Under the pieces are notes generated by a model. It had not been told where the DNA came from and did no database searches. It saw only the letters and a program-made list of their open reading frames with translations. This document shows positions 45,474 to 63,879 of a stretch of 64,000 nt of DNA, piece after piece. The stretch covers positions 32,001-96,000 of the forward strand of contig CAWIEK010000044.1 in assembly GCA_963835065.1 (NCBI GenBank). The letters are read 5' to 3'. Source of the stretch: an uncultured Chthonomonadaceae bacterium (GTDB lineage: Bacteria > Armatimonadota > Chthonomonadetes > Chthonomonadales > Chthonomonadaceae). The translations under genes and the position numbers were made by a program. Each line of letters opens with the position of its first letter. Position 1 is the first letter of the stretch.

Positions 45474-46157
45474 TCATGCCACCCACCCACTCCGCCGCAG
45501 CGCGAAGCCGATGATGAACCCTAAGATCGCCAGGAACAGGAGCATCCACCAGCCTCGGTAGCGGTATTCCGCCTTGACGCGCACTTCCAGGCGGGACTTG
45601 TTGTCGGGGTCTACGCCGTTGTGCGGCCACGCGCCCTGACTGTACAGGCTGTCGGTCAGTTTCAGCGCGATACCTTTGTGGTCGAACACATCGTAGCAGC
45701 ACACCGCGTCAATCTTGCCCGCCGTATGCAGATTTTCCAGCACCTGGCGCACCGGTATCTCCGGGTCCAGTATCCATTCGCTTGTTCCGCCAGGCGTTCG
45801 GATCATATAAGCGTCGCGGGCGAAGGTCAGCGTGATGAAGGAATTTTTCGTGACATCATCCAGCGTATTGGGCGCGTTTTGCCGACGGTTGTAGGGTAAA
45901 AATTTCCCATCCGCCCAGAAGTGCCGGAACAGATCGTTCATCTTTTCCCAGGCTTGCAAATCCGCCTGCTCCGCCATACGCTGCTTGCACTTTTCCTTCA
46001 GCGCGGTCAGGGGCGTCCCGGCAGGAAACTGCCCGATGTTGTAGATTTTGGCGTCCGGGAGCGCGTCCTGTCGTTTGGGCAGGCCGCCCTTTTCCGCCGC
46101 CCGCCCATCCAACTCCGGCAGGTTCACCTTGATATGTATGTCTTCTCGCATGGGCAT
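45474..46157 (-). CDS. C-terminally membrane-anchored protein with possible ubiquitin-like domain
   Basis: C-terminal TM WWMLLFLAILGFIIGFAL; PVRQVLENL...LKLTDSLYSQG...RLEV resembles a beta-grasp; GGAG RBS before ATG 46157. Confidence 0.6.
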   Translation of the reverse strand: MPMREDIHIKVNLPELDGRAAEKGGLPKRQDALPDAKIYNIGQFPAGTPLTALKEKCKQRMAEQADLQAWEKMNDLFRHFWADGKFLPYNRRQNAPNTLDDVTKNSFITLTFARDAYMIRTPGGTSEWILDPEIPVRQVLENLHTAGKIDAVCCYDVFDHKGIALKLTDSLYSQGAWPHNGVDPDNKSRLEVRVKAEYRYRGWWMLLFLAILGFIIGFALRRSGWVA

Positions 46158-46188
46158 TGTTCGTCGCTTTTGCTCCTGCGTTCGATTG

Positions 46189-48234
46189 TCACGAACCCTT
46201 GATGCCGCGTTGCTCTTTAAAGGGTTCATCCAATGAGTCTCGATGCCCTTTCCAACTTACAACCGCCCATTTTGGGGAGTGTACGGGGAGTGTTTTGACG
46301 TAACCCCGCAGGTCTTTACGCGCCGTGTCGGGAAGGTTATCCGCATCTACTGCCAGCAAGATATATTCAAGATCCTTCTGTCCGGTGGCATCGATCTGAA
46401 GGGGAACATCGCGTGTGTCACTGTTCTGCCACGCCATCTCGTATGGGTGATGAGTTCCATCTGCTTCGGTCACGTCCTGCTTCCCATCCGGTTCGCGCAG
46501 TACAGGCTCGGCTTCTCCAACCATGTTCTTCATATAGCTCATTATCGGGCGCGCTTTTTCTCCCGAAACGCTGAACAATTGGAAATAGTACTCCTTGAGC
46601 GGGAGTACAAAGGTGAGTTCGCTGGGGCGGCCTTCCTTTCTGGCCTCGACACTCAGAGTGAGTTCAAGAGGATTGTCCGTTCTCAGAACCGATAATCCCG
46701 CCCGCTTACAGAGTTCCTGCATCGCCGTTAACTTCGGCGCGGGAACCTTGATATGAGGGGGGCGCTTTTTAGGCGTGTGGGGATTGACAACCACTCCCCC
46801 CTGTCCCTGCCTGGGATCATGCGTTATGACTCCGCCAGATGGATTTACAGGCACCCCCCCGCTGCCAGGAGAACCCGGCGGCGGTCCGGTAATCGTGGGT
46901 GGAGCAATTAGTGGCCGGATAGGCTGTTGTTGAACCGGTGGCGTTTTATCCGATTCTTTAGGCTTGTCCGGCAGTTTATCTAATTTCAACTCTGCTGCGC
47001 ATGGAACGACATAGTTGTGGTCGTGGAATTTGCGCCGTTCGCTTACGTAAGAGATGTCAACGGGTTCCTGGTGTCCAACAGTGAAATGCTCCTTCATTGC
47101 GCTGGAAATATCAACCAGCAGTTCATAGGGTTCCGTTTCCTGCGAACTCCCACTCCACCCAAACGGCCAGCGATACCAAATATAGCGCTTGGGCAAAAAG
47201 AATTGGTACACATTGTCTCCAAGCGGGCGGCCATGGTAGCGCTTTTCAACAGCGTCCCTGTGTGACAGCAGTTCCACGCCTTGTATATCTTTCGGATTGA
47301 CAACCATGCCCGGAGGTGGTTTTAGCTGCAAATTAACTGTCGCTCCGGCATTTTCCGGGATGCCCCGGAACATCCAGACAAGCGCGCACACCACGAACAA
47401 TCCGCCGCCGATGAGCAGGGGATAGTCGTACCACCAGAGATGCCGGAACGGCACGTAATCTACAAACGTCTGCTGCTCGCAGGGCGCGACAAAGGCCGGG
47501 GAGGCTTCCCTGGGCGGCGTTACGGCAGCGTCGGCGCAAAGCGTGAAATTCTCGTTACGCTCGCGCGGATTGAGTCGGATGGTCACGGGCAGGGTAATGG
47601 AGGTTTCCGGCGCAAGCGCGTACTCCGGCAGCTTGGAAACCTTCGCGCCGTGATCCGGCGTTTCGCCCCGATACACCTGCGGCTTCACGCCCAGTTCCAT
47701 GTACGACCAGTTGCTGACGGTGATCCGCGCTTTGGGCGAGCCAAAGCCCCAGCGATGCCAGGGACGCAAGCGTACAACTTCGGGGGTTAATTCCACGCGC
47801 ACGTCGCGCTGCGTGGGCGGGGGAAACCAGTGGTACGTTTCCGGTTCGCCGATGAGCGAACCCCCATCCTGGGGCGAGTTGGTGTCGTGCTTAAAAAGAG
47901 AAACGACAAATTCACAACTTGCTTCGCGCTGACTAAGCACAACCAGCGTCAGCGTGACCCCCTCTCCCGGAGGCAGCGGAAATTTGTCGCCCGGCTTGAT
48001 ACGCCCCATATTGGAAGTAGTCAGCTCATATTCGCCGGGACTCAAGCCTTCCACGAGAATACTGGCAAACCGCATTTGAACATTCTGGTTTTCAAGCGGC
48101 CAGGTCAGTTCCGTGCCGTTGCCGACAGCGTTTTCATCCAGGCGCGCCGAAGCGCGGCCCCCGGCCCCATACTGAAACGGGCGTTCGGAGGGCCGCTGGC
48201 GGCTTGAAGATCGGGTTCGCGGCTGTATAAGCAT
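46189..48234 (-). CDS. Bitopic membrane protein (beta-rich N-terminus, TM, Pro-rich linker, C-terminal domain)
   Basis: TM YPLLIGGGLFVVCALVWMF; PPPGSPGSGG linker. Confidence 0.7.
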   Translation of the reverse strand: MLIQPRTRSSSRQRPSERPFQYGAGGRASARLDENAVGNGTELTWPLENQNVQMRFASILVEGLSPGEYELTTSNMGRIKPGDKFPLPPGEGVTLTLVVLSQREASCEFVVSLFKHDTNSPQDGGSLIGEPETYHWFPPPTQRDVRVELTPEVVRLRPWHRWGFGSPKARITVSNWSYMELGVKPQVYRGETPDHGAKVSKLPEYALAPETSITLPVTIRLNPRERNENFTLCADAAVTPPREASPAFVAPCEQQTFVDYVPFRHLWWYDYPLLIGGGLFVVCALVWMFRGIPENAGATVNLQLKPPPGMVVNPKDIQGVELLSHRDAVEKRYHGRPLGDNVYQFFLPKRYIWYRWPFGWSGSSQETEPYELLVDISSAMKEHFTVGHQEPVDISYVSERRKFHDHNYVVPCAAELKLDKLPDKPKESDKTPPVQQQPIRPLIAPPTITGPPPGSPGSGGVPVNPSGGVITHDPRQGQGGVVVNPHTPKKRPPHIKVPAPKLTAMQELCKRAGLSVLRTDNPLELTLSVEARKEGRPSELTFVLPLKEYYFQLFSVSGEKARPIMSYMKNMVGEAEPVLREPDGKQDVTEADGTHHPYEMAWQNSDTRDVPLQIDATGQKDLEYILLAVDADNLPDTARKDLRGYVKTLPVHSPKWAVVSWKGHRDSLDEPFKEQRGIKGS

Positions 48235-48270
48235 TTTTACTATCTTTACCTTTTTAGTTAATTTGGGCTG

Positions 48271-48777
48271 CTATTGAGGCTTTCTGTCAAAAATCACGGG
48301 ATAGTCGAACGAAAATTTGTCTTCCGGGCTGGCATCCTTACGATAATTCTCAAATTTATCATGCCAGAGTTTGATGTTCTTGTTTCCCTCGCTCGCCAGT
48401 TGCTTTTCCTTCTTATCCAGTAACTCCATGTACTCTTTGCGCGTAGGCCATGTTACTGTGTCTTTCCAAACCTGATAACTTCTATCATCCGGGGTGAACT
48501 CCAGATACTCTTTTTCACCCGAATGTTTACTCAGTTGATAAGGTTTTGATAATGACGGGTCGCTTAAATGCGTCTTGTGTTGGTCCTTGGCTCTGATGGA
48601 GTTACCATCCTTATCAAAACCAAAAAAGAGCAGCGTGATTTTGCCCTGCTGTTGGGGGGGCGGTATGGCCGGCGCCGGCTTCGGAGTCGGCTTGCCAAGC
48701 AGATACCCGATTACGCCGCAGACCGTAAACGCCGCAAACGCTTTTAACCAGAATATATTTGACAGACAGCGTAACAT
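48271..48777 (-). CDS. Small N-terminally anchored hypothetical protein (low GC)
   Basis: Hydrophobic AFAAFTVCGVIGYLLG followed by Pro-rich linker. Confidence 0.6.
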   Translation of the reverse strand: MLRCLSNIFWLKAFAAFTVCGVIGYLLGKPTPKPAPAIPPPQQQGKITLLFFGFDKDGNSIRAKDQHKTHLSDPSLSKPYQLSKHSGEKEYLEFTPDDRSYQVWKDTVTWPTRKEYMELLDKKEKQLASEGNKNIKLWHDKFENYRKDASPEDKFSFDYPVIFDRKPQ

Positions 48778-48794
48778 TGTAAGAAGTTCCTTCG

Positions 48795-49886
48795 TTATTT
48801 GTCCGACCGCCAGTTTATCAAACTACGCTTTTTGATGGTGACATCCGGCGCGCTCGCCCCCGGCGACGGCAGAAAAGGTTTTTCCGAGTTGACGACGACA
48901 CCGCCGCCGGGGCCGCTGTCGGGCGTAATGCCGGCCTCCCACTTCTTGTACTCCTCCGCCAACTTGCGCAGCGCTTCCGAGATGAGATACAGCAAATAGC
49001 CCCAGTCGGTTTCCCGCCTTTCCGCTTCCGGGGGAATTTCCCTCAAAGCGACGGCAAGATGCGCCAGTATTTGCATCTGCTGACCATGATGCGGCAGGAG
49101 GAACCGCAGTTCGTTCAGCTGCATCAATATGCGGTACACGCGATTGAGATAAGCGCGCGGACGCTCGCCCCAATCCAGCACAACGTTCGCTTCCATCAGC
49201 GCCGCCGACATAATGCCCGCTTCCGGCTTGTGGTTCACCAGCAGTTTGTTCAGGTGCGTGAGGCAATTTTCCGCTTGTTCCTGTATCTGCTTCACGGCTA
49301 TGATCAAGCGCGGCATACTGTCCAGGCGCAGACATTCGGGAATAAACGTGTCGTCTTCCCGCAGCCCGGTTATGTCGTTGACGAGTCGCCCGATGCACAG
49401 CCAATCCTCGACGTTTTGTTCCGCCCGCGTGGTGGAAAGCAGATAGCGCATTTGCGAGAAACGGCGCGGGATGCGTCCCTGCGACGATTGTTCCCCGATT
49501 GGTTCCATGCCCTCCCGAATCCCTAAATAAACGGCGATTTTGCTGCCCGTCGCCGACGTTTCCGGGGCAAGGTCGCCGACATAGGGCGCGCACAACGGCA
49601 TACCCGCGCTGATGACGATTTCCGCCGGGTAGCCGCTCGGCATGATGGCCCGACATTCCAGCAGCTTCAGCGTACATTCCCAGATACCGCCCCGCGTGTT
49701 GTTTTGATAGCGCGTCAGACTGAAGGCTTCGCGGGGCATTTTCGCAACCCCATACGCGCCCTGCGCCAGCGCCAACAGCCGCAGTTGATCCAAAACAAAC
49801 TCGCGGTCTTCGGTCAGATACTGCCCGCGCATCATTCCGACCGAGTCCCAATACACGGCGTTCAAGTTAATGGCGTCTCTGCTCAC
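48795..49886 (-). CDS. tssK: TssK-like baseplate subunit
   Basis: N-terminal VYWDSVGMMRGQYL and LCIGRL...EDDTFIPECLRL match the TssK VxWxxGM and LxxARL...DxxFIPPxL motifs; helical C-terminus. Confidence 0.7.
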   Translation of the reverse strand: MSRDAINLNAVYWDSVGMMRGQYLTEDREFVLDQLRLLALAQGAYGVAKMPREAFSLTRYQNNTRGGIWECTLKLLECRAIMPSGYPAEIVISAGMPLCAPYVGDLAPETSATGSKIAVYLGIREGMEPIGEQSSQGRIPRRFSQMRYLLSTTRAEQNVEDWLCIGRLVNDITGLREDDTFIPECLRLDSMPRLIIAVKQIQEQAENCLTHLNKLLVNHKPEAGIMSAALMEANVVLDWGERPRAYLNRVYRILMQLNELRFLLPHHGQQMQILAHLAVALREIPPEAERRETDWGYLLYLISEALRKLAEEYKKWEAGITPDSGPGGGVVVNSEKPFLPSPGASAPDVTIKKRSLINWRSDK

Positions 49887-49955
49887 GCTTCTCCTCAGAA
49901 AAAAGTGGATAGTGGATAGTTAGTTGATAGTTCGTAGTTGACACAAGACAGACAT

Positions 49956-51632
49956 TTATTTGGCGAGACAGGAGCGCAGGGGAAGCCCCTCGCGCGTCCG
50001 GGGCGCGTTGCCGTCCGCAAGCCAGGCGGTTTCACCGAGAACAGCCGCGTCTACCGCCCATCGGCAGCGCAGCGGCACATGCGCGGGCAGAAACAGCCGC
50101 CCCAAAACTTCCAGCCGTTTATGCGCCTGCTCCGTTTTTGATTCAGCCCAGGCGTTTTCCACTTCGGGGCGGCCCGCCGCCTGCGCTTTCTGTTCTGCCG
50201 TTGCAGTCGCTTCTGCCGTTACAGTCGCTTCTGTCGCTTCTGTGCCTCCTGCCGCTTCTGACGCTTCTTCCGGTTCGGAGGTTTCAAAGCGCTCATGCGG
50301 CAGATACACGATCACTTCGGGCGCGCGCAAAATCGCTTCGCCTTCCAGCATCAGCGTTAATCCCAACTGCGCAAGGGGCGTTCCCATCCGGCTTTCCACG
50401 CTGTGATAGGCTTCCAGGTGGATGCTTGCGTCCTGGGAAACCAGCAGGCGAACGGCGCGGTCGAAAAGCGCGCCCCAATCCGTCACTTCCCGGCGTTTCA
50501 GCAGCAGCGCCCACAAAATGCCCTGCGCTTGCGGTTCGGAAAACAACTGCCAGTCTTCGGGCATCAGTCCCAAAAATCCATCGTCCTTCCAATCCTGCAT
50601 CAGCCGCAGCAGAACGCCATTCAAGTCCAGGCCGCCGAGCAATCCGTTTTGCGCGTAGGGCTTGCTTTTTCGGCCAAGCCAATAGGCCAGCGGGTTTACG
50701 CCCAAAGCCTCCGGCGACTCCCCGGTTTGAAAGGCCGTTAATGTCGCTGCAAAAAAATCCTCAACGGTCAAATCCCAATCGGGCGGCGACCAATCCATCG
50801 GATACGCTGCGCCTTCCAGCATGTCAATTTCGGCCAGGTGCAGAAACATCAGCGTGAAAAACCGCTCCGCCAATCGCGTGGCCGCATCGGTCTGCGTATC
50901 TACATTTTGATCGTCCCAAACAAAGCCGTGCGGGTTGGCGACGGGAATCAGCTGATTGTCGCGCAGCAGCAGGATGTAATCGGAAGGCGTTTGCAGCGCG
51001 GGCGGCGACTGCAATTCCGGGTACTGCGTTCGCCACAGCCGCGCCAGCCATTGCGTGGGAGACATCGCGCCGGGCATCACCATTCCCTGCGCGCCCGGCG
51101 CGTCGGGCGCGGCCAATCCCTGTACGGCAACAAACCCCAACTGCTCCGTCCATTCGTCCGGGCTGCGGTCAATCAGCCACCGGTGCGTTTCCAGGCAGGC
51201 CTGCTCCTGCCGGTTGGGGATCAGACTCGGCGCGAACTGCGTGTCCCAGAGGCTGGCCGCGAGCCGTTCCGCCAATGCGCGCAGTTCCTCCTCCAGGATG
51301 GGCGCAGGCGTTTTGGGCAGTCCGACCTGCATCAGTGGATACAGCCATTGCAGCCGATTGTCGGCCCGTATATTCAGGTCAATAGAGCCGTCCTGGCGCG
51401 CGGCAATCACTTCCGGCTGCGCGAAATGCCCGACATTGGGCGTAACGCGCATCGTTTCCAGCGGGATGCCCTTTTCCCGCAGCAGCAGCACGGCGTACAG
51501 CAGAAAAGCCGGGCCGTTCAAAGCAGAAAAATACTCCAGTTCGTCGTATTTCAATTCCACTTTCGGCGGCGCGGGCTTGCCGGGCGTATTCGCCTGCCCC
51601 GTTGATGCGGCTTCCGTTGGCTCCGGGTTCAT
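49956..51632 (-). CDS. Divergent TssG-like baseplate subunit
   Basis: Lies between TssF-like and TssK-like genes; C-terminal AQLGLTLML...LGRLFLPAHV; ATG 51632 overlaps the upstream stop (ATGA). Confidence 0.5.
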   Translation of the reverse strand: MNPEPTEAASTGQANTPGKPAPPKVELKYDELEYFSALNGPAFLLYAVLLLREKGIPLETMRVTPNVGHFAQPEVIAARQDGSIDLNIRADNRLQWLYPLMQVGLPKTPAPILEEELRALAERLAASLWDTQFAPSLIPNRQEQACLETHRWLIDRSPDEWTEQLGFVAVQGLAAPDAPGAQGMVMPGAMSPTQWLARLWRTQYPELQSPPALQTPSDYILLLRDNQLIPVANPHGFVWDDQNVDTQTDAATRLAERFFTLMFLHLAEIDMLEGAAYPMDWSPPDWDLTVEDFFAATLTAFQTGESPEALGVNPLAYWLGRKSKPYAQNGLLGGLDLNGVLLRLMQDWKDDGFLGLMPEDWQLFSEPQAQGILWALLLKRREVTDWGALFDRAVRLLVSQDASIHLEAYHSVESRMGTPLAQLGLTLMLEGEAILRAPEVIVYLPHERFETSEPEEASEAAGGTEATEATVTAEATATAEQKAQAAGRPEVENAWAESKTEQAHKRLEVLGRLFLPAHVPLRCRWAVDAAVLGETAWLADGNAPRTREGLPLRSCLAK

Positions 51633-53278
51633 CGCGCAATCTCCGCAAGGATTCGATACCAGCCCAGGGAAAAGTTTTGTTCCAGGCAGGAAGCCGCGTG
51701 GTGCGCCATGTCTTTGAGCAGATAATCCGGCAGCGCAATTGTCGGCTTGACCGGCAGCGTCAGGCGCATGACCGGCGAAATCGGCAGGGAGGGGGCGGCT
51801 TCCTCCGGCGCATTCGCGCCTTCGGTGGGAAGCGGCGGCAGAAACGCGGGCTGATAGGAGAGAAACGGTTCTGCCATGCGCGAAGGCCAAAGATAACTGT
51901 CCCATAGCGTCGGTTCCTGTACGCGCGCATTCACGCCTTCCAGCCGGAACTGCGCGCGGCTGATGTCGAAGCAGCGATGGCAGTCCGGGAGATGCCGTAA
52001 AAATTCCTGCAATTCCCCGAACGTCAGCATCCGGGAGCGCAGGAAAATCCACTGCCACCAGAAGCGGCAGGCGTCGCCCGTCGGGTCGCTGAAATCCAGC
52101 GTCAGCCCGCCGACGGGAAACAGGCTGATGTCAAATTTCGAAGGCGCTGCCTCGCGCTGATTGTCCGGGTCGCTGACAATTTCGCGGCGTTCGCGGCGCG
52201 CGGCGGGTTCTGACGCCTCAAATTCGGCAGGTTCAATCGTGCCCCGGCTGCCGTAATAAACGCGCGCTTCCTGGGCCTGATTGCCACACGCCACGCGCGT
52301 TTTGTTGCCCTCATGGCGCAGCGGCGCGGCCTCCCAGGTGTCCCCGCTCACGCCCGCCGCCGCGAAAACGCCCTTCAAATCATCGAAGATAATCTCGATT
52401 TTACCCATTACCAGGTCGCGGCGCGTCGGCTGCCAGTCCATCTTCATTTGCGCCGCGACAACGGGATTGAGCAGCAGCCAATCGTCGCCCTCCGCGAGCC
52501 GCTTGCGCAAACCCGCGCCAATCTCATCCTCCATCGTGACCGACAACGCGATCTGCGTGGCTTCCCCCCGGCTTCCCCCTGTCTGCCCGTATGTGGGCAG
52601 CGCAGCAAAAGGAGACGGACTCGAACCGGACGGGCTTGCGAAACCTGTGGAAAAACGGAGATGCAGGATTTTGCGGGAATAGGGATAAAAGGGCGGCAGC
52701 CAGGTTTCCAGCGCGGGCGTGGTGGGCGCGGACAATCGCAGCGACTGCTCCAGTTCGCAATACCCTACGTACCGCTCCACCTGCACCGAACAGGGGCGTC
52801 CATCAATCTGCGCGCGCCACGTCGCTTCCGCCAGGCTCGCAACCGCTTCTTCTTCGGCGGCAATGCAGACCAGCATCCCCATTTCCGGGTCGGTTAAATC
52901 GGGTTCCTCCGTTCCGGGGATATGGCGCAACGTCCAGAAGCAGGAGTTTTCGCTGACGCGGCAGTTCTGCGTGAAAATCGGACGAATCCAGCCTTCACCG
53001 CATGGCGTCCAGGGCTCCCGATGTTCGTCAAACGCCACATCGCGCCGACGAATCAGGGGCGTGGCGGCGGGACTGGTTTGCGATGACGTGATCTGCTGCC
53101 AGGCGGGGCTTTGCGGCAGCAGCAATCCCTGCATGGGAAACTGCCAGACGCCCTGCGGCAAAATCTGCGCCGAAATCTGCCCCGCCACATGTCGGTGCGC
53201 CTGTTCCAGCCGCTTCGCCAGAAGTTCGTTCCACTTGTCGAGAAAATTTTCAAAAGGCCGGCTATAGGTGTCTGTCAT
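51629..53278 (-). CDS. Divergent TssF-like baseplate subunit
   Basis: 549 aa; AQILPQ..FPMQGLL, LLLNPVVA, RSRMLTFGE resemble TssF motifs; synteny. Confidence 0.55.
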   Translation of the reverse strand: MTDTYSRPFENFLDKWNELLAKRLEQAHRHVAGQISAQILPQGVWQFPMQGLLLPQSPAWQQITSSQTSPAATPLIRRRDVAFDEHREPWTPCGEGWIRPIFTQNCRVSENSCFWTLRHIPGTEEPDLTDPEMGMLVCIAAEEEAVASLAEATWRAQIDGRPCSVQVERYVGYCELEQSLRLSAPTTPALETWLPPFYPYSRKILHLRFSTGFASPSGSSPSPFAALPTYGQTGGSRGEATQIALSVTMEDEIGAGLRKRLAEGDDWLLLNPVVAAQMKMDWQPTRRDLVMGKIEIIFDDLKGVFAAAGVSGDTWEAAPLRHEGNKTRVACGNQAQEARVYYGSRGTIEPAEFEASEPAARRERREIVSDPDNQREAAPSKFDISLFPVGGLTLDFSDPTGDACRFWWQWIFLRSRMLTFGELQEFLRHLPDCHRCFDISRAQFRLEGVNARVQEPTLWDSYLWPSRMAEPFLSYQPAFLPPLPTEGANAPEEAAPSLPISPVMRLTLPVKPTIALPDYLLKDMAHHAASCLEQNFSLGWYRILAEIAR

Positions 53279-53321
53279 ACTCTGCCAGGTTACTCTGCGG
53301 GCTTGCTCAGTTCAGGAAGCC

Positions 53322-53747
53322 TTAGCCTAAAATATCGTTCTGAATGTATTGCAGCAGTCTATGGATTGTTCGCGCTTCAAGAGTACTCCGTGTTTTTGCT
53401 AAAGCAGCTAGGCGTGTTCTATGTCCCTGATCAAGCGCGCCGGCAACCTGCTGGCGATCCAAATCCCGTAACCCGTCAGCAACCGTGACCAACAACTCAC
53501 CATCTGCTGCGTCCAGCATCTGTATCATCAGAGGAAGCGCATATCGCAACTCTCCATGAGGAAGGATTTGAGCGAGATAGCGCTGCCATTGTAGAGGTTT
53601 TTGGCGCCAAATCCTGTTTAGCGCGTCCCAATCGTCAGATGTCAACGGCCCTATAAGCGTGTGAGCATAAAGGATAACATCATCTGACCAGTAATCCACA
53701 GAGTAGTCCTGACTGAGACAGTCATCAAGCATAGCTAGTGTACTCAT
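53322..53747 (-). CDS. Putative immunity protein for the EndoU toxin
   Basis: 141 aa helical ORF 9 nt after the toxin stop; same low-GC block. Confidence 0.7.
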   Translation of the reverse strand: MSTLAMLDDCLSQDYSVDYWSDDVILYAHTLIGPLTSDDWDALNRIWRQKPLQWQRYLAQILPHGELRYALPLMIQMLDAADGELLVTVADGLRDLDRQQVAGALDQGHRTRLAALAKTRSTLEARTIHRLLQYIQNDILG

Positions 53748-53756
53748 AATAATCCT

Positions 53757-54950
53757 TTACCATTGGGACGGGTTTCCACCTGTCGGGTAGGAAGAGGTAA
53801 TATTACCTTGCGCATCTTTAATCACTTCCCATTGAACGCCATCCACAGTTTGCCTGTGCAGGGTGGCGCCATCCCTGACACGCGATGCGACTTCCGGGGT
53901 GTCTGCTACCTTTCCAGTCGTATCAAGTATCTTCTGATCAGTCCAGTCATCAGGCGCTAAAGTGGACTGTTTGATTTTAGAAAGATTTCCGTCTGGAAAT
54001 TGAGTTACAAACTTGACTTTTGAAGTGCCGTCAGGATAGGTTTCAAGAACCTCATGGTCGAAATTGGGCGATGTTTTGATTTGAGGAGAATGCCCTCCAA
54101 TAACTTCGTTGGACATTCCTCCTGGTGAATTAGCATTTGGCACTCGTTGACTGTAAAGAATCTTCTGCTCCATTTCAGGAGTAAGTCTCTGGCTTGCAGG
54201 AACTTCGACTTCACCCGGAACGAACTTTCCCGCAAGCCCACTGCCGAGCGCAGCACCCGCAAAGCCACCTGCAAAGGTTAGAACTTTCTGACCGGTAGAC
54301 CCCTCTCCGAAAATCTTGCCGCCTGCCCAATGCCCGCCCATACCGCCGCCGATGCCGCCCAAAAACCCGCCGCCCAGCCTGGCGGCGATAGCAGCCATGC
54401 CTAATCCCCTGGCGGTCATTGCCAGGCCACCGCCGGCCAATCCCAACACCAGCAAGGCTGCCTCAGCCTGCCAGGGAACTTCGCTATGGATGTCCGCGCA
54501 GGTATGTACCGGGCCGCCAATCAAAACGGTGGAACACCCTTGCGCGATGACAAAGCCGCATACGCCCTTATCTGTTTTACGCGCCGCGTGCAAGCCTTCA
54601 ATCAAGACGGTTTCGCTGCCCTGCGCGACCAGAGACACTTTATGGGCGACGCAAGCAACCTTACTGCCACATGCAATGGCCGCCTGCCGTCCGTCGCCTC
54701 CAATGTAAACTGTGGCTGCTCCCGTGATGATAGGGCCACTGTCGGCAGGGATCATGGAGCCAACAACTTCGCCTATCATCCCTCCCAGAGACGCTCCCGT
54801 ACACGCCGCGCCCGCAATCGCCAGCGCCGCCGCGCCGCCGGTCGCAATGATTGCCGCGCCAATCACTGCGCCCGCAAGCGCGCCCACTATCAACCCCGCG
54901 AATGCAGAGGAATGTGAAACCTGATCTCCTATTCGCGCGGCTTCCGGCAT
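53757..54950 (-). CDS. prePAAR-TMD-PAAR-TMD effector with C-terminal EndoU-like RNase
   Basis: AARIGDQVSH prePAAR motif; Gly/Ala TM hairpins; GSETVLIEGLHAARKTD; GGH...KQSTLAPDDW...ITSSYP EndoU pattern. Confidence 0.85.
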   Translation of the reverse strand: MPEAARIGDQVSHSSAFAGLIVGALAGAVIGAAIIATGGAAALAIAGAACTGASLGGMIGEVVGSMIPADSGPIITGAATVYIGGDGRQAAIACGSKVACVAHKVSLVAQGSETVLIEGLHAARKTDKGVCGFVIAQGCSTVLIGGPVHTCADIHSEVPWQAEAALLVLGLAGGGLAMTARGLGMAAIAARLGGGFLGGIGGGMGGHWAGGKIFGEGSTGQKVLTFAGGFAGAALGSGLAGKFVPGEVEVPASQRLTPEMEQKILYSQRVPNANSPGGMSNEVIGGHSPQIKTSPNFDHEVLETYPDGTSKVKFVTQFPDGNLSKIKQSTLAPDDWTDQKILDTTGKVADTPEVASRVRDGATLHRQTVDGVQWEVIKDAQGNITSSYPTGGNPSQW

Positions 54951-54968
54951 AATCAACAGTCCCCAGGT

Positions 54969-55391
54969 TCAGCGCAGCAGGCTGAAACTCTCAACCAGCG
55001 ATGCAAGCTGCTTTTCGTAGCGGTCGAAATTTACTTCTAAAGCGGTGGCCGTCAGCGTCAAAGCGAGCTGATTGGAATAGAAATAGTATTGATGCTGACG
55101 CATCATACCGTTCTCGGAACGCCAGGTAAAATTGGCTCGGATCGTGTGCCTGCCCCCAATAGCGGCAGGGCGCTGCTCAAGCAGAAGAAACCCGTTCAGA
55201 TTTGCCTCTAAGACTTTCAATTGCCTGGCTGCGTAACTGTTCACATCTTCGTCGGCTCTGGCGTCTTCTCGATTCATCACGACATTGAACTCGCCCGGAC
55301 TGGCTCCCGCATTGGTAAAGATGTGAACAGACAGGTCTTTCCACCCTTCGGGCAGGAAGAAGGATCCCTCATTGAACTTGTATAAAGGCAT
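54969..55391 (-). CDS. Eag/DcrB (DUF1795) effector chaperone
   Basis: YKFNEGSFFLPEGWKDLSVHIF...LVESF; directly upstream of a prePAAR effector. Confidence 0.85.
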   Translation of the reverse strand: MPLYKFNEGSFFLPEGWKDLSVHIFTNAGASPGEFNVVMNREDARADEDVNSYAARQLKVLEANLNGFLLLEQRPAAIGGRHTIRANFTWRSENGMMRQHQYYFYSNQLALTLTATALEVNFDRYEKQLASLVESFSLLR

Positions 55392-55519
55392 ATACGCTTC
55401 CCTCATTATCCCAAGACCGGAAGATAGTTGTTTTAGAGACGGTTTCGCCCGCCTGCGGGGCCGCAGCAGCACTTGCCGGTGGCATTGCGGCGACCCGCTT
55501 ACTTTTGGATTGCTGATTC

Positions 55520-56296
55520 TTACGGATGGTGAGACTGTACAGGCAGATCACCCGGCAGGATAGGCCGACTAAGCTCGCCGGTATATTTCAGCACTTGCAG
55601 GCCCGTACCCGGAACGGGTACAGAAGAGCGCAGCAGTTCTATATCTTTGTCTGACAGTCGGGTCTTTACGGCTGCTGCATTTAAATCCAGCGCCGTTGAG
55701 CCGAGGAAAGCTGAAGGTGTCGCTGTCACATCGGGCCGCGCGGTGACATATTGAACGATTAGCTCGATCTGCTTCGCCTGGACAGGCGCCATAGGGATGG
55801 TATCATTTCTGAAGAAATAGGCGCTGTGTTCTGAAACAGGAACAGGAACCTCAATATCCAACTGCAGATCAGAATGTGCCTTAAGGCGGGTGGCACAGGG
55901 CCGATTGGAGTAGGTAACCAGCCTTTTGGGGAGTGGAGACGCGCCTAATAACAGGCGTAATGTCCCATCTTGAAAGAAGCAGTAGACGTGTTCCGGGTCA
56001 AGAACGGGATGATTATTTTTGGCCTCCAACCGCCACAGACGGTTTAGCACATAAATGTCTTCATTGCCAGAGTTCGTTATGTGTATGCCGACACGCAAAA
56101 TAGAGGCGCTGGTCACTGTGAAATTTGTTTTCATATGAACCGAACCCCGCGTAGAAGTTGGGTCGGAACTTGGCGTTCCGCTGCCAAGCGGCACATTTTG
56201 GCCGACAGTGTTCATGCTTTTGCTCCTTATTTTGTTTTTATCGTCTTTGGCGAGACTACGACAGGCAAGATTGCAGCCTAAGGCTGCAATCAACAT
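55520..56296 (-). CDS. Hypothetical protein, candidate immunity for the VgrG peptidase; start uncertain
   Basis: Directly downstream of vgrG, lower GC; possible lipobox-like ALGC near the N-terminus. Confidence 0.5.
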   Translation of the reverse strand: MLIAALGCNLACRSLAKDDKNKIRSKSMNTVGQNVPLGSGTPSSDPTSTRGSVHMKTNFTVTSASILRVGIHITNSGNEDIYVLNRLWRLEAKNNHPVLDPEHVYCFFQDGTLRLLLGASPLPKRLVTYSNRPCATRLKAHSDLQLDIEVPVPVSEHSAYFFRNDTIPMAPVQAKQIELIVQYVTARPDVTATPSAFLGSTALDLNAAAVKTRLSDKDIELLRSSVPVPGTGLQVLKYTGELSRPILPGDLPVQSHHP

Positions 56297-56339
56297 TATA
56301 CATCGCCAGCGCTTTTTATATTGTGTTTGCACACTACAT

Positions 56340-58772
56340 TTAAGGCTGCGACGGAGGCGTGTTGGGAACAAAAGCATTGTCAGCATCAGAATGATTTACC
56401 CTGTGGTATGGATAGCCTATGTCGCGCAGATAATCTGCTTCCGAAGGCGTTCCTGTTGAAATTGTAGTTTTTTCTTCCAGTGTGTCGAAGACCGGGTCCG
56501 GCGCGCAGTCGCCAATGCCGTTCATCTGATGCGCGCCATGTGTCATTTCGTGAAACAAAATGGCATCATTAGGAACCGGATGTGCCGGATCAAGGGAGTT
56601 TGTAAGCGTTAGATCCGGCAGAAGCCTTACAGTGGTATCAGCCCCCGTTCCAGTACCAATGCGCTGTGTTACGCCATCAGCCTCCATAACGGGTGCCCCG
56701 GAGCCGTAGAATACAGGTTTACCTACAGCCGTAGACGCTTGCCATTCATCATCGGTATCCGGGCCGCAATCGCTGTTTGGTCCGTTTGGATCGTTAGCTG
56801 GATACTCGGTAATCTTCATGTTGTGTCCGCTCTCATCAATGCTGTTGAGGGTCTGCATACCGGAATCGGTAGTGGCAATTTTGTCAAGCCGATCCAATGC
56901 CTGCGCCTGGAAAGCGGGCGTACCGTGAATGGTAATAGCCCTGCCTACTTTGGTGTCCCCGTTGGGCAGCTTCGTAACGGCCATTCCTCCAACAGTACGC
57001 GTTGCCGCAGTGCCCGTTCCCGCGCCTCCTGCTGGCCCTGCTCCCACGCCTAAACTCGTGTCCAGGTGCAGGGGTGACATGGAGGTGGGTCCACAGTTGA
57101 TCATAACGAGCGGCGTTCCGTCTATCTTGACAGTTCCCTTTGTCGCCTTCATCTGGATCGTGCCCGCTTCCAGCATCAACTGGTTGTCGGCGTGCATGTA
57201 GATGCTGCCCGAACAGAAGATGTCAAGCTGCGCGGGGCCACTCCCCTTCTCGAAGTGAATACGATCACTCCCCGAACTTGTCAGGTCCATCACCACTGTC
57301 TCTTTGCCGCCCTCGATCTCGCCCCGAAAGATCAACTTGTCCTTACAGCGTATCTCTACAATGTCGGTGGCGCCTTTGTCTTTCGTCGTCATGCTCACCA
57401 GATTACCCGAAGGTGTCCGCCACAACTTGGTTTCATCCGGCGCATACACAAACCCCTGCGCCGCATGTTCACGCACCGACCCGATCACGACTGCATCGCT
57501 GTCCCAACCATCTAAGAACTGCACAAGCACATGCTCGCCCACTTCCGGCAGCGACAGAAAGCCCGACGTGCCGGTCTTGCCCTTCAACCCGCCATATGGT
57601 GTGACGGTTTGCAGCCAGCACAAGCGCGTAAACGGCGTCGCTTCCAGCGGCTCCCAATCGAACTCCACCTGAATACGCCCGCTCTTGGTCGGATCGTCGC
57701 TATTGTTCTTGGTCACATGCGCCCACAGGCACTGCATCGGCCAGTTGGTGCGCCGCAAGCGGGGAAGCAGGGGCATCAGTTTGTCTAAGAGCGCGAACTC
57801 CTGCGACACGGCTTCGCTGCCATGTCCTTGTATGGTCACGTCGCGCACCAGCCAGGGTTGTTCGGCAAAGTTGACCAACGCGCCAGGCGCAAAGGCGTAC
57901 ACGCCTCCCATCCAGCGCGCCCGGCACACAACCGTGTTCACATCCAGGTTGGTCGCATCCTCTAACTTCTGTTCCTGCTGGTACTGCGCATGATGGGGCG
58001 CGTCCGCTTTCGGTTCGTACAGGTGCCCCGGCGCGCGCGTCAAACCCGCGTTGAACTCCAGCACCTTAGAACGCGCAATACCCGGCGACGCGCTGCCGGT
58101 GCCCTGCGCGGTTGTTTGTATGGGAACCAGGCCCGCTTCCAGACTGGTCGTATTCCAGTGCCTATCCGCGCTCGGAAACTCGTCGCCTGCCGGAACGCTC
58201 GGTTTGCCGATCAGCACTTTGCGGTTGAGGTCGTCAACGGCTAGGGGAATGCCCCACGCATGCAGCATCCGGCACAAGTAAGCAAAATCGGTTTCTTCGT
58301 ACTGGACGCTGAGGGGTATCTTTACGCTTCCTGTTGCGCTCGCCCCGCCTTCGCCGAAGTCAAGTTCTCCCTTGTTCTTGCCGATGAGGTAATCGCACAC
58401 ATCTTTGAGCGTACAGCTTTCCCACACGCGGAAGTTGCGGATTTGATCCAGGCGCGCGCTGTAGGACACGCACTCGAAGTGGAAGTAGGCGCGGTGTTCC
58501 AGCCGTTCGGCGCGCACGGAGCGCACATAGCCCCGGAAGCAGTCCACCGTTTCGCTGTCATCCTTAGAATGCCAGCGCAGCAGCACATCGGCGTTGAGGG
58601 TTTTTGCGCCTTTTTCGGCAAGAGCGGCGTAGGTATCGGCTTCCTGATCGTCGGTTCCGAGCGTACAATGGGCCGTGCCGTGCGTGTACAGGCGGCGGAC
58701 GATGGACACATCGGCCAGTTCCGTTTTGGCGATCAGCCCGTTGATTACACCCGACACGATCTCGAACGACAT
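56340..58772 (-). CDS. vgrG: Evolved VgrG with C-terminal HExxH zinc metallopeptidase (M91/NleD-like)
   Basis: VQYEETDFAYLCRM, DPTKSGRIQVEF, LPEVGEHVLVQF, VMINCG, then a G/A/T linker and ILFHEMTH. Confidence 0.88.
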   Translation of the reverse strand: MSFEIVSGVINGLIAKTELADVSIVRRLYTHGTAHCTLGTDDQEADTYAALAEKGAKTLNADVLLRWHSKDDSETVDCFRGYVRSVRAERLEHRAYFHFECVSYSARLDQIRNFRVWESCTLKDVCDYLIGKNKGELDFGEGGASATGSVKIPLSVQYEETDFAYLCRMLHAWGIPLAVDDLNRKVLIGKPSVPAGDEFPSADRHWNTTSLEAGLVPIQTTAQGTGSASPGIARSKVLEFNAGLTRAPGHLYEPKADAPHHAQYQQEQKLEDATNLDVNTVVCRARWMGGVYAFAPGALVNFAEQPWLVRDVTIQGHGSEAVSQEFALLDKLMPLLPRLRRTNWPMQCLWAHVTKNNSDDPTKSGRIQVEFDWEPLEATPFTRLCWLQTVTPYGGLKGKTGTSGFLSLPEVGEHVLVQFLDGWDSDAVVIGSVREHAAQGFVYAPDETKLWRTPSGNLVSMTTKDKGATDIVEIRCKDKLIFRGEIEGGKETVVMDLTSSGSDRIHFEKGSGPAQLDIFCSGSIYMHADNQLMLEAGTIQMKATKGTVKIDGTPLVMINCGPTSMSPLHLDTSLGVGAGPAGGAGTGTAATRTVGGMAVTKLPNGDTKVGRAITIHGTPAFQAQALDRLDKIATTDSGMQTLNSIDESGHNMKITEYPANDPNGPNSDCGPDTDDEWQASTAVGKPVFYGSGAPVMEADGVTQRIGTGTGADTTVRLLPDLTLTNSLDPAHPVPNDAILFHEMTHGAHQMNGIGDCAPDPVFDTLEEKTTISTGTPSEADYLRDIGYPYHRVNHSDADNAFVPNTPPSQP

Positions 58773-58844
58773 CTAAAGATACTCCACGAATGTCGCGCCA
58801 GGGCGACATCTCACGACAAGATATTACAAACAAGGCCGGCTTTG

Positions 58845-58903
58845 AAAAAAGATACGGACAGGATGCGCAGGCATCTTCAAGAAGCGCCTGCGCATCCTGT
58901 CCG
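58845..58903 (-). terminator. Intrinsic terminator between the hcp-like gene and vgrG
   Basis: 18-bp perfect stem, 58855-58872 against 58886-58903, followed by T6 on the minus strand. Confidence 0.8.
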
Positions 58904-58910
58904 GCGCGGT

Positions 58911-59345
58911 TTAGTTTTCGGCTGCCGTGCCGGCCGAGACGTCAATGAGGTTCTTGCTATCGTAGTTGACGGTTCCGGGCAACGCGGCCATAATGTTGAC
59001 CGTGATGGTGGAACCTGTCAGCTGCAAGTCCGTGCCGACGCCGCCTGCCGTGACATCCGATCCCCATTCGTTTTCCGCATAGCTGCTGACCCAGGCGTGA
59101 GGAATTATCCAGTTGTGCTGCGGCTTCTCATCGCGGCTTTCCGTGCTCAATTCCACTTTCTTGAAGCGGTCCGGGCCGGCTTTGGCCTTTACCCAGTCGG
59201 CGAGCAGCGTGTCTTCAGTCAGCCGCACAATGACTACCATCCCGGCGATGGGCACTTTGAGCGGTTCGCGGCTGTCGCCATGTCCAATGTTCACGGTTGC
59301 GCGCAGCACCTGCTGAATCTCGGTGCCATTGATTTTCAGTTTCAA
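58911..59345 (-). CDS. Hcp/TssD-like tube protein
   Basis: About 144 aa, beta-rich; LADWV...FKKVEL...AWVSSYAE; lies between sheath-like gene and vgrG; TTG start with AAGGAG RBS. Confidence 0.7.
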   Translation of the reverse strand: MKLKINGTEIQQVLRATVNIGHGDSREPLKVPIAGMVVIVRLTEDTLLADWVKAKAGPDRFKKVELSTESRDEKPQHNWIIPHAWVSSYAENEWGSDVTAGGVGTDLQLTGSTITVNIMAALPGTVNYDSKNLIDVSAGTAAEN

Positions 59346-59602
59346 CGTTTTACTCCTTGTCAGTTGCAAACTTCGAGTTCAAAACTAGTTCCAGGACGAT
59401 TTTGAAAAGGCGCTTGCCGGGATGCGGCAGGGCATTTCCCTTTGCGCATGTAGAGCGTTCGCCTTTGCGCATGAAAATGTCGAAGTGTCCGCTCCTGGAA
59501 TACCGAACACCGGAACGCCGGCATCTTCATACAATGTCACCAGTCCCTAGTGGCTAATCAATAGTGGCTGGCCGAAAAATGGTTTGTCGCTAACGTCGTT
59601 GT

Positions 59603-62108
59603 TCAATTGAAGGAAATATGCAGATCGCCGACAACGCCCTCTTTGAAGTTCAGCTTGATGCTGTAACCGGCGGAAGGGTCGTCCACGTCATTGGGCGTGA
59701 CCACAACGCCGTCTTCTTTCAGCGGGCCGGGGAACGCATTGACGGTCTTGCCCAGCGGATCGTACCAGCCCTTGTTGCCGCCGTCCACATACAGCAGAAT
59801 TTCCGCGATAAGCGCTTCCATTTCCTCCTGCGTGGGCAGCGCGCCGCCTTCAAACGCTTGATACGCCAGCAGCAGGCGGCGCAGATACACCTCCTGCCGG
59901 TAGTGGTGAATCATGCGATAGCGATAGCCGGAGCCGATGTCCACGCGATACAGCGTGCGCGGCGCGACAATCGCAGGGTTTTTGCCGGCAACATGCCGAA
60001 ATACGAGAAACGACTGATCCACGCCCGAAAACTGCGAATAGATGTCGTCGCCGGTAAACTCGTCGAGCGGTACGCGGGTCTGCGCGAATATGGGATGGGC
60101 GGTAACATCTACGGCAATACCGGGCAGTCTCGGGTTCACCTGTTGCTGCATTTTGGAAATAGCCTGCAGCACTTTGGGCTGGTCATTCGCCATGATGCGT
60201 CCCGCCGCGACATAGCAGGCGCGCACGGCAACGGGCGGCACTTCCACCGCTACCTCGCGCCCGTCCGCCACCTTGCCCGTGATCAGTACGCCGTCCGGGG
60301 GCAGGCACAGGAAATCGGGCGCGCACAAAATGCCGGAAACCGCCCACGACTGCCCCACAACGTCGTCCACGCAGTAATCGTTTTGTACGCCTTCCACAAC
60401 GACTTTTTTCGCCCGCCCGGAAATCAGCCTTTCTTCGGGCGAGAACAGTACTTGAAAGCCGCACTCATAGCCCAGTTCCATCAGGCCCATCACTTCGGCT
60501 GCGCCCGCCACGCGCCCAAACCCGCCGAACTGCTCGATGCGCTCGTGGCGCAGTTTCTCGATGCGCGCGTCCAACTGGATATGGTCATCCTCGACCTCGG
60601 CCTCTGTGGTACGCTGGTAATCCTCTTCAAAGTTGCCGCCCCGGATGCGCCCCTCGCCGGGGGGAGTCGGTTCCTGGCCGAGGAAGGGAGCGACATGCGG
60701 CACAATCGCAAAGGAAATGGCGTCCTGGTACTGGTTGCCAGCCTGGTGGCATGCGCGGCGCATGTAGTAGACAAGCTCTTCCTGATAGATTTGCCACAGG
60801 TCGGTCAGTTCGCCGTTGGCGACGATAAGTTCCGGCTGTATGCCCATGACGTCCGGCGGAAACTCGTTGAAGAGAGAATAAACTCCCATAATCGTTTCAA
60901 ACAGAGGAATCACTTCGCGGAGGAAGCTTTGTACGCCCTTGCTGTACACGCCAAGAAAATCGTCATGCGCTTTCGCCAATTCCTGCGCGTCGAATTTGTA
61001 GGTGATTCCATCCGGGCCGGTCAGACCTTTGGCAAGTTCTTTGGGATCGTTGAGGACGACGGCAAGCAGGTTTCCTACAACCGGGTCAATCTTCTTCAGA
61101 CGCACCATCTCGCTCATGAAGCTGCCGACAACGGCGGGAAGCTGGGCTTTTCTGTCCTTGATGGTAGCGATTTCGCTCAGGTCGCGCTTTGCCAGGGGCT
61201 TGCTTTCCAGCGCGTTGCGCAGGGGAACCAGTTCCGTGCTTCCCGTGCGGGTGGCCGCGCCCGCGCCGATGGCCTTGCGCGTGGGCGGCGGCAATTTGGG
61301 AATGTCTTCGACGCTCAGGCGGCCATTGGTTCCGATGGTCAGGAACAAATTTTGATCGCTTGATTGACCGCTGCCCCCACTCGGCCCGACCATAGATTTG
61401 TAAGATTCCAGCAGCGCGTGTTCCGCGATGGCTGTGGTGCGCAGTTGATCGGACAGCGCGTTTTCCAGTTCGGACTTGCGCCGCTCAAAGGCTTCCAGCG
61501 AACGCTGGATGTCCTTGTTCATCTTCACTTCGCCGCTGGAATCTTCGGCCCGCTTCATTTCGATCAGCAGTTTTTCCAACTGGGCATGCAGCGTCTGCAT
61601 GGACTTTTTCACCAAGCCGTACTGTACGCTGGGCTTGAAGCCAAACAGCGCTTCGTCAATGTTGACCCGATCCGCGCCCTGACGCAAACGCACCCGATTG
61701 CTGATAAGGTCGCGCAGCGAACGGATGAAGGGATGGGAACTCGTTGATGAGTATCTTGGTCCAGCCCGGCCCGCCTTCCAGCGAGAACTCATAATGCGGA
61801 AGTTCATCAAGGGAGTAGACCTGGCCTTCCGCGTCTTCGGTCGTGATTTGCCCACCCGCCCGTAGGCGATAAAAAAAAGCGGGCTGCATCTTGTCCATGA
61901 ACTCTTTGAAAGAATGGACAGCCAGTTCTTTCTTGACTTTGTCTCGAAATTGCGTCCACGTCATCAAGCCGGACTGCAAATAGGCCAGCATATCTTCCAG
62001 GCGTGGCGCATCTATGGACAAGTTGACGGAGGTAAACAAAATGGCGCGGCTGGTGTTGGGCTGCATGGTCTGATTGACAAATTGCAGCGTTTTACGATTA
62101 ATGGGCAT
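59603..62108 (-). CDS. Large divergent sheath-like protein (TssC-like C-terminal half); split by a one-base frameshift near 61738
   Basis: Removing one base joins ...KILINE to SHPFIRSL..., giving 834 aa; FAIVP, YVAAGRI, APRTLY and terminal YSIKLNF resemble sheath/TssC motifs; first gene, upstream of the tube. Confidence 0.55.
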
Positions 62109-62601
62109 GTCGAACTTTCTCCCGGAATGTGACTGTTTGTTTTACCTGCATTGTTCTAGTGACGTAGAATACACCACTCGTGTTCCGTCTATCGCCATAA
62201 AAAGTAGATATTGAATGATCATCTTTGCAAGATGAGCGTCAACTTCACAAATTGATAAATATGATCAGATGGATGAGGCGCAAAGCGGTTTTAGGCCAGC
62301 GAAATTGGAGGATCTGCTGAATTTAAGAGAGTGTTCTACCCTAACCAACCTGACAGGCGAAAAGTTCTGTTGCGGTTCCCAATCTGGCGCGATTTTAAGA
62401 AAATTTTATTCAAACCACAGAGGAAAAGCATATCCAGTCGGTCAATCTATATCCACGCCCTGTTACTTTCAACAGCCTGCCCGGGCGCAAACGATTTTCC
62501 CATACTCTGTTACATCTTCCAATGGTCAAGGCATGTTAGATAAATGCAACCAAATGGATTGTGTAAAAATATTCCTGAGCAACTATCCCGGAGGTCGTTC
62601 C

Positions 62602-63879
62602 ATGCCAAAGTATACACACATGGTTTGTTTGGTTGGCGAGAATCCTCTGCCTATCTGGTTGGGAATTCACCAGTTTATGCCATCGAAGCAAGAAACGGCC
62701 AACATAGAAGCAAAGCCGATTGTCCGTCTCGTCTACTCAAGTCAAACCAAGAAGGTCGCTGAACACCTGCAAAAACAGTTGCAGCATGAAAGCGATAGTG
62801 GTCTGCACGAGATTAGATGCTTATTCGATGCCGATGGCGAACTCAAAGAAGCCTTTTCACCACAGGCAATGAGGGAGACGTTGAAAAAGCTGAATGGCGA
62901 GAACCTTAGTGATCTTGACGATTATGCGTTGAACTACACCGGTGGCACAAAGGTTATGGCTGCCTACTTTCTCCACGACTGGATGACGACCGGACGCAGT
63001 GACCGCGCATTCTATCTACAAGAAACAAACGGGCAATTTCACTTTGATAGCGGCACCCCATATCCACTTAAGCCAACTATTAGAGAGTTGACACTTGACA
63101 CTCTCGAAAGACTTCACGGCGCTAATCCGCATTCGTTGCGCCCCAATGTGCCCTGTAACAAACAAGATTGTGTGAATTTTTATAATGCACATCAAAGCGG
63201 CGAGTTGGCAAAAATCAAGAAGAAGTCATCTGATAAGTGGAACCCACTAGAACCTTCAATTCCTTACTTTCATGCCCAAGTTGAAAGTGAAGGAACTTGG
63301 AGAGGGGAGAGTGAATGGGCGCAAATTTTTACACTACTCACCGACAATGCGCGTACGCAATGGCAGCAATCTATCTTCTATTCTGATGACACAAAGCAAA
63401 AGCTCAGTGAAGAACTCAAGGAGCAGTTCCGCTTTGCCTTTAAGAATGAGTGGCTGGAATGGCTTGTCATGTTCTGGCTGAAAGAAGTATTGCCTGACAG
63501 TAAAGTTACCACTGGCAAGAAGTTCAAAATTGAAGGCCAAGAGTTTGAAGCAGATGCGCTGGTGGTTCACAAGAATCGTCTTTATTACTTCTCTGTCACT
63601 ACCAAATTGAAGCCCGATGAGTGTAAAGAGAAAATGTTCGAGGCTATACACCGCTCGCGGCAGTTGGGTGGTGGATTAGCGCGTTCTTGTACCATTTGCC
63701 TGGCAGATGAATACGATGATTACGAGAGCGGCAAAAAGGTGGATACAGTTTCAGCAATTCGTAAATCTCTCACGAGCAGCGATAAAATCGGGAACCACAC
63801 CATCTTTGGACTTAAAGAGATCACTAAATGGCTAACTGATGAAAACATCGAAGATATGGAAACTTTCATCAATCAATAG
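62602..63879 (+). CDS. CARF-domain PD-(D/E)XK nuclease (Card1/Can2-like CRISPR ancillary effector)
   Basis: LVGENPLP, LNYTGGTKVM (CARF); WLEWLV...FEADAL...YFSVT...RQLGG; GGAGG RBS before ATG 62602. Confidence 0.8.
   Translation: MPKYTHMVCLVGENPLPIWLGIHQFMPSKQETANIEAKPIVRLVYSSQTKKVAEHLQKQLQHESDSGLHEIRCLFDADGELKEAFSPQAMRETLKKLNGENLSDLDDYALNYTGGTKVMAAYFLHDWMTTGRSDRAFYLQETNGQFHFDSGTPYPLKPTIRELTLDTLERLHGANPHSLRPNVPCNKQDCVNFYNAHQSGELAKIKKKSSDKWNPLEPSIPYFHAQVESEGTWRGESEWAQIFTLLTDNARTQWQQSIFYSDDTKQKLSEELKEQFRFAFKNEWLEWLVMFWLKEVLPDSKVTTGKKFKIEGQEFEADALVVHKNRLYYFSVTTKLKPDECKEKMFEAIHRSRQLGGGLARSCTICLADEYDDYESGKKVDTVSAIRKSLTSSDKIGNHTIFGLKEITKWLTDENIEDMETFINQ

Follow-up and report, generated by a model that had tools for sequence, protein, structure and literature searches.

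A candidate new type VI secretion subtype in Armatimonadota with a fused sheath and a predicted membrane anchor of its own

The DNA analysed here, referred to as the window, is a stretch of 64,000 nucleotides from an Armatimonadota genome (source genome G000, contig C44; CAWIEK010000044.1, positions 32,001-96,000). It carries an operon on the minus strand at 45,474-62,108 that probably builds a membrane-docked type VI secretion system (T6SS) machine of a new subtype, predicted to inject its toxins into neighbouring cells. Three membrane proteins at the end of the operon, named A, B, and C, likely form a new envelope anchor. Four T6SS subtypes, all from Pseudomonadota or Bacteroidota, are listed in a 2026 review (PMC13584744), and the system described here is a candidate fifth. 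No description of it was found in the literature searched, which left most subscription journals outside. If the reading is correct, the operon extends T6SS to a further phylum and represents a third independent way in which a TssK baseplate docks on the envelope.

A preliminary description of this DNA had proposed a single minus-strand operon in this gene order, and the coordinates of the open reading frames (ORFs) bear this out. Fourteen ORFs, all on the minus strand, run from 62,108 down to 45,474 with intergenic gaps of -200 to 233 bases. Pfam and NCBIfam assign four of them (VgrG, DcrB/Eag, prePAAR-PAAR-EndoU, and weakly TssK); the remaining ten are without a family. The source genome is 8.0 Mb in size and 92% complete, and every core gene is single-copy in it, with the additional matches of protein B falling on other contigs. 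When 401 Armatimonadota genomes of at least 80% completeness, representing 205 genera, were surveyed, the sheath profile matched 21 genomes in five genera, and canonical TssC (PF05943) matched none. Comparison of 24 loci, with four duplicate loci excluded, revealed a conserved nine-gene core and variable effector cargo. The sheath was found in 24 loci, Hcp and protein C in 23 each, VgrG in 21, TssF and the TssG-like gene in 19 each, TssK in 16, protein B in 15, and protein A in 14. Most of the misses sit at contig or flank ends. The most frequent core order is protein C, sheath, Hcp, TssF, TssG-like, TssK, protein A, protein B, and VgrG.

The co-occurrence was then measured by whole-genome searches in the 21 sheath-positive and 10 selected sheath-negative genomes. 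TssK and protein C were each present in 21 of 21 positive and in none of the 10 negative genomes. For protein A the counts were 19 of 21 and 0 of 10, and the two positive genomes where it was missed are assembled in 500 and 1,060 contigs. The profiles were built partly from sequences of many of the positive genomes, so the negatives carry the information.

The known anchors were searched for in five genomes (G000, G001, G052, G161, and G247), the last two of which are single-contig assemblies. TssJ (PF12790), TssL (PF09850), TssM (PF06761), and TssA (PF06812) were not found anywhere in the five genomes, and ClpV (TIGR03345) exceeded its cut-off in none of them, with general Clp ATPases as the only matches; the E. 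coli control matched in each case. TssN (PF17555) was matched in none of the five, and no control matched either. TssE/gp25 (PF04965) was found in two of the five, both far from the locus, and a divergent or fused form could escape detection. The single-contig G161 contains the core and has no gp25 match. In favour of the new-subtype reading, TssK, protein C, and protein A track the sheath, and the known anchors were not found. The system had been called minimal, a word to be used with caution: TssB occurs in fused form, and a TssE that has diverged might have gone unnoticed.

The sheath is a single ORF of 840-880 amino acids in relatives. In the window it appears as two ORFs on the minus strand. 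The first (61,656-62,108) is the N-terminal TssB-like part, severed where the frame shifts by one base near 61,740. The second (59,603-61,855) contains the linker and the TssC-like part, and its 5' end does not share the reading frame of the true start. The frameshift was placed by frame comparison with an intact homolog that is 78% identical. The first ORF, of 150 amino acids, aligns to residues 1-171 of single ORFs of 862-874 amino acids in relatives; it was considered as a separate gene and rejected, since it is the sheath N-terminus cut off by the frameshift. The AlphaFold2 model of a full-length sheath homolog (P0002), with a predicted template modelling score of 0.83, matches contractile sheaths in Foldseek and VIA, and TssC chains align to model residues 373-834. 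This supports the contractile sheath fold expected from the preliminary description. According to the model, the sheath is a single chain with a TssB-like and a TssC-like part; no separate tssB gene exists, as had been noted, but TssB is fused into the sheath ORF and not absent. The frameshift in the window copy may be an assembly error. Four of 40 matched loci of the source genome, at three distinct places, are split across frames, which fits assembly errors.

The gene at 58,911-59,345 (minus) encodes an Hcp/TssD-like tube protein and probably starts with the TTG at 59,345, which follows AAGGAG. The top three matches of its profile among the reference T6SS proteins are all subtype iii TssD, with a best E value of 0.004, and one homolog gives weak gp19 and TssD Pfam matches (E 0.03-0.04). 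The earlier Hcp assignment is consistent with these results, but the support is weak. Three tandem Hcp-like genes are carried by G050 and G052 (L011:8692-10419, L013:10619-12424).

Two of the three baseplate assignments made earlier were confirmed by structure or profile matches. The gene at 51,629-53,278 (minus) encodes the TssF wedge protein, as indicated by AlphaFold2 and Foldseek. The top two matches of the model are chains H and I of 6n38 (E 2e-6 and 6e-6), and the following match is at 7e-3. The PVC wedge protein matches at E 9e-3, leaving 6n38 ahead by more than three orders of magnitude. Weak VIA matches of the model include wedge proteins. The TssK adaptor gene at 48,795-49,886 (minus) matches the TIGR03353 hidden Markov model at E 1.7e-6, and its homologs match more strongly (E 1e-9 to 6e-8). 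The match spans only the N-terminal 240 of 429 model positions, and the nearest reference is a subtype iii TssK (E 1.8e-5). About 60 kb separate tssK from the sheath in G050 and G052, where tssK has the opposite orientation. The third assignment, the TssG-like wedge protein at 49,956-51,632 (minus), fits in position and rank but not in significance. The gene overlaps the tssF stop by 4 bases, and its start is most likely at 51,632 (558 amino acids) rather than at 52,058. The protein is about 200 amino acids longer than reference TssG proteins. Subtype iii TssG ranks first among 22 references at a weak E value of 0.07, and the tentative TssG identity comes mainly from the gene position.

The last three genes encode membrane proteins, as predicted from the DNA alone; each has one hydrophobic segment, and they co-occur with the system. 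Protein A (48,271-48,777, minus) consists of an N-terminal helix and a small domain predicted to be periplasmic, and the N-terminal hydrophobic segment is present in 14 of 14 homologs. Protein B (46,189-48,234, minus) consists of an N-terminal region of about 270 amino acids, one helix, a beta-rich domain, a proline-rich linker, and a variable C-terminus, with Fn3 domains in many homologs. Its internal hydrophobic segment is present in 14 of 14 homologs. Protein C (45,474-46,157, minus) contains predicted tandem ubiquitin-like domains and a C-terminal helix that is hydrophobic in 18 of 20 homologs. This tail-anchored layout resembles that of subtype i TssL. The profile of 20 protein C sequences produced 13 PDB matches at E values up to 10, and all 13 are di-ubiquitin or the ubiquitin-derived Affilin, with a best E value of 0.005. 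A YukD match was found in 1 of 20 members (E 0.043). According to Bongiovanni and colleagues, TssN of Bacteroidota has an EccD-like ubiquitin-like domain preceded by five helices; the domain recruits TssK, which co-purifies with TssN, and the anchor of subtype iii has TssN as its hub (PMC10781749). Protein C is inferred to be the TssK docking site and a candidate hub of the anchor. In that case, ubiquitin-like domains would seem to serve as docking sites for TssK more than once.

The proposed machine would work as follows. The baseplate of TssF, the TssG-like protein, and TssK would assemble around VgrG-PAAR, with the effector loaded by Eag. TssK would dock on the ubiquitin-like domains that tail-anchored protein C has in the cytoplasm, and perhaps also on the N-terminal region of protein B, while proteins A and B would form the periplasmic scaffold of the anchor. 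The sheath would polymerise without TssA, the machine would fire into adjacent cells, and the sheath would either rely on a general chaperone for recycling or not be recycled. At the end of one locus of G001 (L010:10440-13750), dnaK, protein C, and a DnaJ-domain gene lie in a row; as speculation, this is a hint of chaperone-based recycling.

The VgrG, Eag, and PAAR-toxin genes of the preliminary description were all named by Pfam and NCBIfam profile matches. The VgrG spike gene (56,340-58,772, minus; PF05954 E 5e-11, PF04717 E 2e-10, TIGR01646 E 4e-17) carries a C-terminal M91 zinc-peptidase domain (PF14891 E 4e-9) with the motif HEMTH at 741. The protein at 55,520-56,386 (minus) is possibly the immunity protein to the VgrG peptidase, as judged by position; it has no Pfam or NCBIfam family and no homolog in the four relatives compared. 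It is followed by a DcrB/Eag-type chaperone gene (54,969-55,472, minus; PF08786 E 1e-25), which is named Eag after its DUF1795/DcrB family. The effector gene at 53,757-54,956 (minus) encodes prePAAR-PAAR, hydrophobic segments, and an EndoU nuclease tip (PF05488 E 7e-14, PF14436 E 1.5e-11, PF25799 E 5e-5). Nine bases past the toxin gene, a predicted immunity protein is encoded at 53,322-53,747 (minus), for which no Pfam family was found.

The Eag/prePAAR pair and the cognate toxin-immunity layout were counted for a toxin-injecting machine. They bear on one alternative, in which an inner-membrane tether holds the machine without secretion across the envelope, and the machine acts within its own cell or is freed on lysis. 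Contractile systems of Streptomyces and cyanobacteria act in their own cell or are released on lysis, and a single-chain contractile sheath is shared with subtype iv (Amoebophilus) and with extracellular systems such as Afp, PVC, and the Streptomyces contractile injection systems (CIS). The wedge here, however, is of the TssF type with TssK. A gp25, baseplate-J-type wedge, tape measure, cap, and Afp15-type ATPase make up the extracellular CIS and subtype iv; none of these, and no tail fibre, was found in the nine gene clusters that are conserved. Neighbouring candidate immunity genes, together with an effector of the Eag/prePAAR kind, are typical of cell-to-cell delivery. The non-secreting machine is therefore unlikely, and a toxin-injecting T6SS remains the preferred reading.

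The sheath family extends beyond Armatimonadota. The sheath profile matched 254 of 1.84 billion representatives at E values of 0.001 or below, many of them 670-760 amino acids long. No T6SS or tail-sheath Pfam family was matched in any of 65 distant homologs scanned. Standard screens would miss the system, since the Pfam sheath models are blind to it. The Atlas labels the distant clusters, from 5-7 members each, mostly as Bacillota. A scan with 20 of these distant sheaths gave 310 matching stretches, of which 80, corresponding to 61 loci, were retained; 23 of these loci are at least 15 kb long. In these 23 loci, the sheath occurs with an Hcp-like gene (19), genes for proteins of 425 (19), 225 (16), and 260 (17) amino acids, and Hsp70-like (21), DnaJ (11), membrane FHA (19), FHA (19), and PP2C (21) genes. 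VgrG or DUF4280 PAAR was found in 12 of the 23. The Armatimonadota Hcp profile matches the distant 141-amino-acid gene (E 3e-5), and the TssG-like profile matches the 225-amino-acid gene (E 5e-4). For TssF the link is weak (E 0.006), and profile searches of the distant loci did not detect TssK or any of proteins A, B, and C. In 8 of the 23 loci (L043, L045, L047, L048, L050, L053, L061, and L075), a single cluster holds two sheath paralogs separated by about 10 kb, and frequently a pair of Hcp-like genes as well.

A pair of VgrG and DUF4280 PAAR in Firmicutes has been flagged as a possible phage-like system for translocation, of unknown kind, with no T6SS or extracellular CIS genes found nearby (PMC8651086). 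The distant family shares this Phage_GPD-type VgrG and DUF4280 PAAR; its loci differ in carrying the Hsp70-like, DnaJ, FHA, and PP2C genes. The distant relatives supply the sheath and tube missing from that system, which was proposed for Gram-positives in 2021 (PMC8651086), and the proposal is now testable. A broader claim, which we hold tentatively and at somewhat less than an even chance, is that the operon is the founding member of a T6SS lineage, the fifth, whose sheath is fused and which lacks TssA, TssE, and ClpV. Its Armatimonadota branch would use its own three-protein ubiquitin-like anchor. The sister branch, widespread in Bacillota, would be a Gram-positive type VI machine regulated by FHA, PP2C, and kinase proteins, with Hsp70-like/DnaJ recycling instead of ClpV.

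The operon was also compared with the described subtypes. It resembles subtype i (Pseudomonadota, TssJLM anchor) in the TssF fold (6n38), the N-terminal part of TssK, VgrG, Eag, and prePAAR-PAAR. It differs in that TssJ, L, M, A, E, and ClpV were not found, no separate TssB exists, and the TssK match ends at 240 of 429. The comparison with subtype iii (Bacteroidota, TssNQOPR anchor; PMC10781749) raises the alternative that the operon is a strongly diverged offshoot of that subtype, in which C is a remote TssN and A and B are remote TssO/P/Q, so that there would be no new anchor. Subtype iii proteins are the top-ranked references for TssK (E 1.8e-5), Hcp (E 0.004), and the distant sheath profile (E 0.004). 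Both have single-helix periplasmic proteins and a membrane protein with a ubiquitin-like domain in the cytoplasm (PMC10781749), which for protein C is predicted, and TssJLM is lacking in both. TssA is likewise absent from subtype iii, as from subtype ii (PMC13584744). However, the single helix of protein C follows its ubiquitin-like domains, whereas five precede that of TssN. Real TssN, O, P, and R proteins, taken from plasmid loci, gave no tblastn match in the source genome. The core has no TssR-like lipoprotein, ClpV, or TssE, and three membrane genes are present instead of five, in another phylum. Subtype iii has separate tssB and tssC, tssE beside tssF, and ClpV in the locus; the layout here differs, with a fused sheath and with Hcp or cargo genes preceding tssF in the loci compared. 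An offshoot of subtype iii is thus quite improbable.

It is very improbable that the window copy is a decaying or incomplete element borrowing parts from the opposite-strand contractile system at 24,287-45,439: its sheath is frameshifted, that neighbour holds its own sheath, spike, and baseplate J, and a gp25 gene lies on another contig, but relatives hold an intact core without that neighbour, in G161 the core occurs without a gp25 match, and the frame-split loci of the source genome fit assembly errors.

The candidate new subtype first proposed from the DNA is supported by the missing known anchors, the sheath and TssF folds, and the co-occurring membrane genes, and the outcomes that the preliminary description had named as refuting it were not observed. 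The three membrane proteins are its candidate anchor. Several points weigh against it. The TssF model is of low confidence, with a predicted local distance difference test score of 52. The TssG-like protein has no significant match and no Pfam or NCBIfam TssG match. The locus contains no TssE, and none was found in three of the five genomes, though described baseplates include TssE. The ubiquitin likeness of protein C is borderline: the E value moved from 0.005 to 0.027 with 57 sequences, where two of five matches were Affilins. Protein C compared with three real TssN proteins gave no significant match (E 0.49). Of the nine core genes, none can be recognised as encoding an outer-membrane lipoprotein or channel. 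Finally, 14 of the 20 positive genomes besides the source genome belong to one genus, and the co-occurrence counts are not independent.

Other observations concern single loci and neighbouring genes. The G002 locus (L015, G002:C14:345000-364999) contains many split genes, including those for the sheath, VgrG, and protein C, reflecting decay or assembly errors. A record titled Janthinobacterium lividum (L030) holds a locus of the Armatimonadota type, and the title may be a mislabel. The extracellular-type contractile system on the plus strand (24,287-45,439) converges on the operon and ends 34 bases away. It contains a phage sheath, a possible tape measure of 1,145 amino acids, an Rhs gene, a spike, baseplate J, and a fibre-like gene, and it was not found beside the operon in the relatives examined. 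A third contractile cluster of the source genome (G000:C15, about 22,700-47,000; L126, L127) has gp25, a phage-type sheath, and an AAA ATPase-like gene. Directly upstream of the operon, on the other strand (62,269-63,879, plus), a low-GC CARF/Card1-like gene is followed by genes resembling a type III CRISPR module. A gene resembling a flagellar ATPase, located upstream of the window (G000:C44, about 1,300-2,700), seems to be split over three frames, a further sign of insertions or deletions in this assembly.
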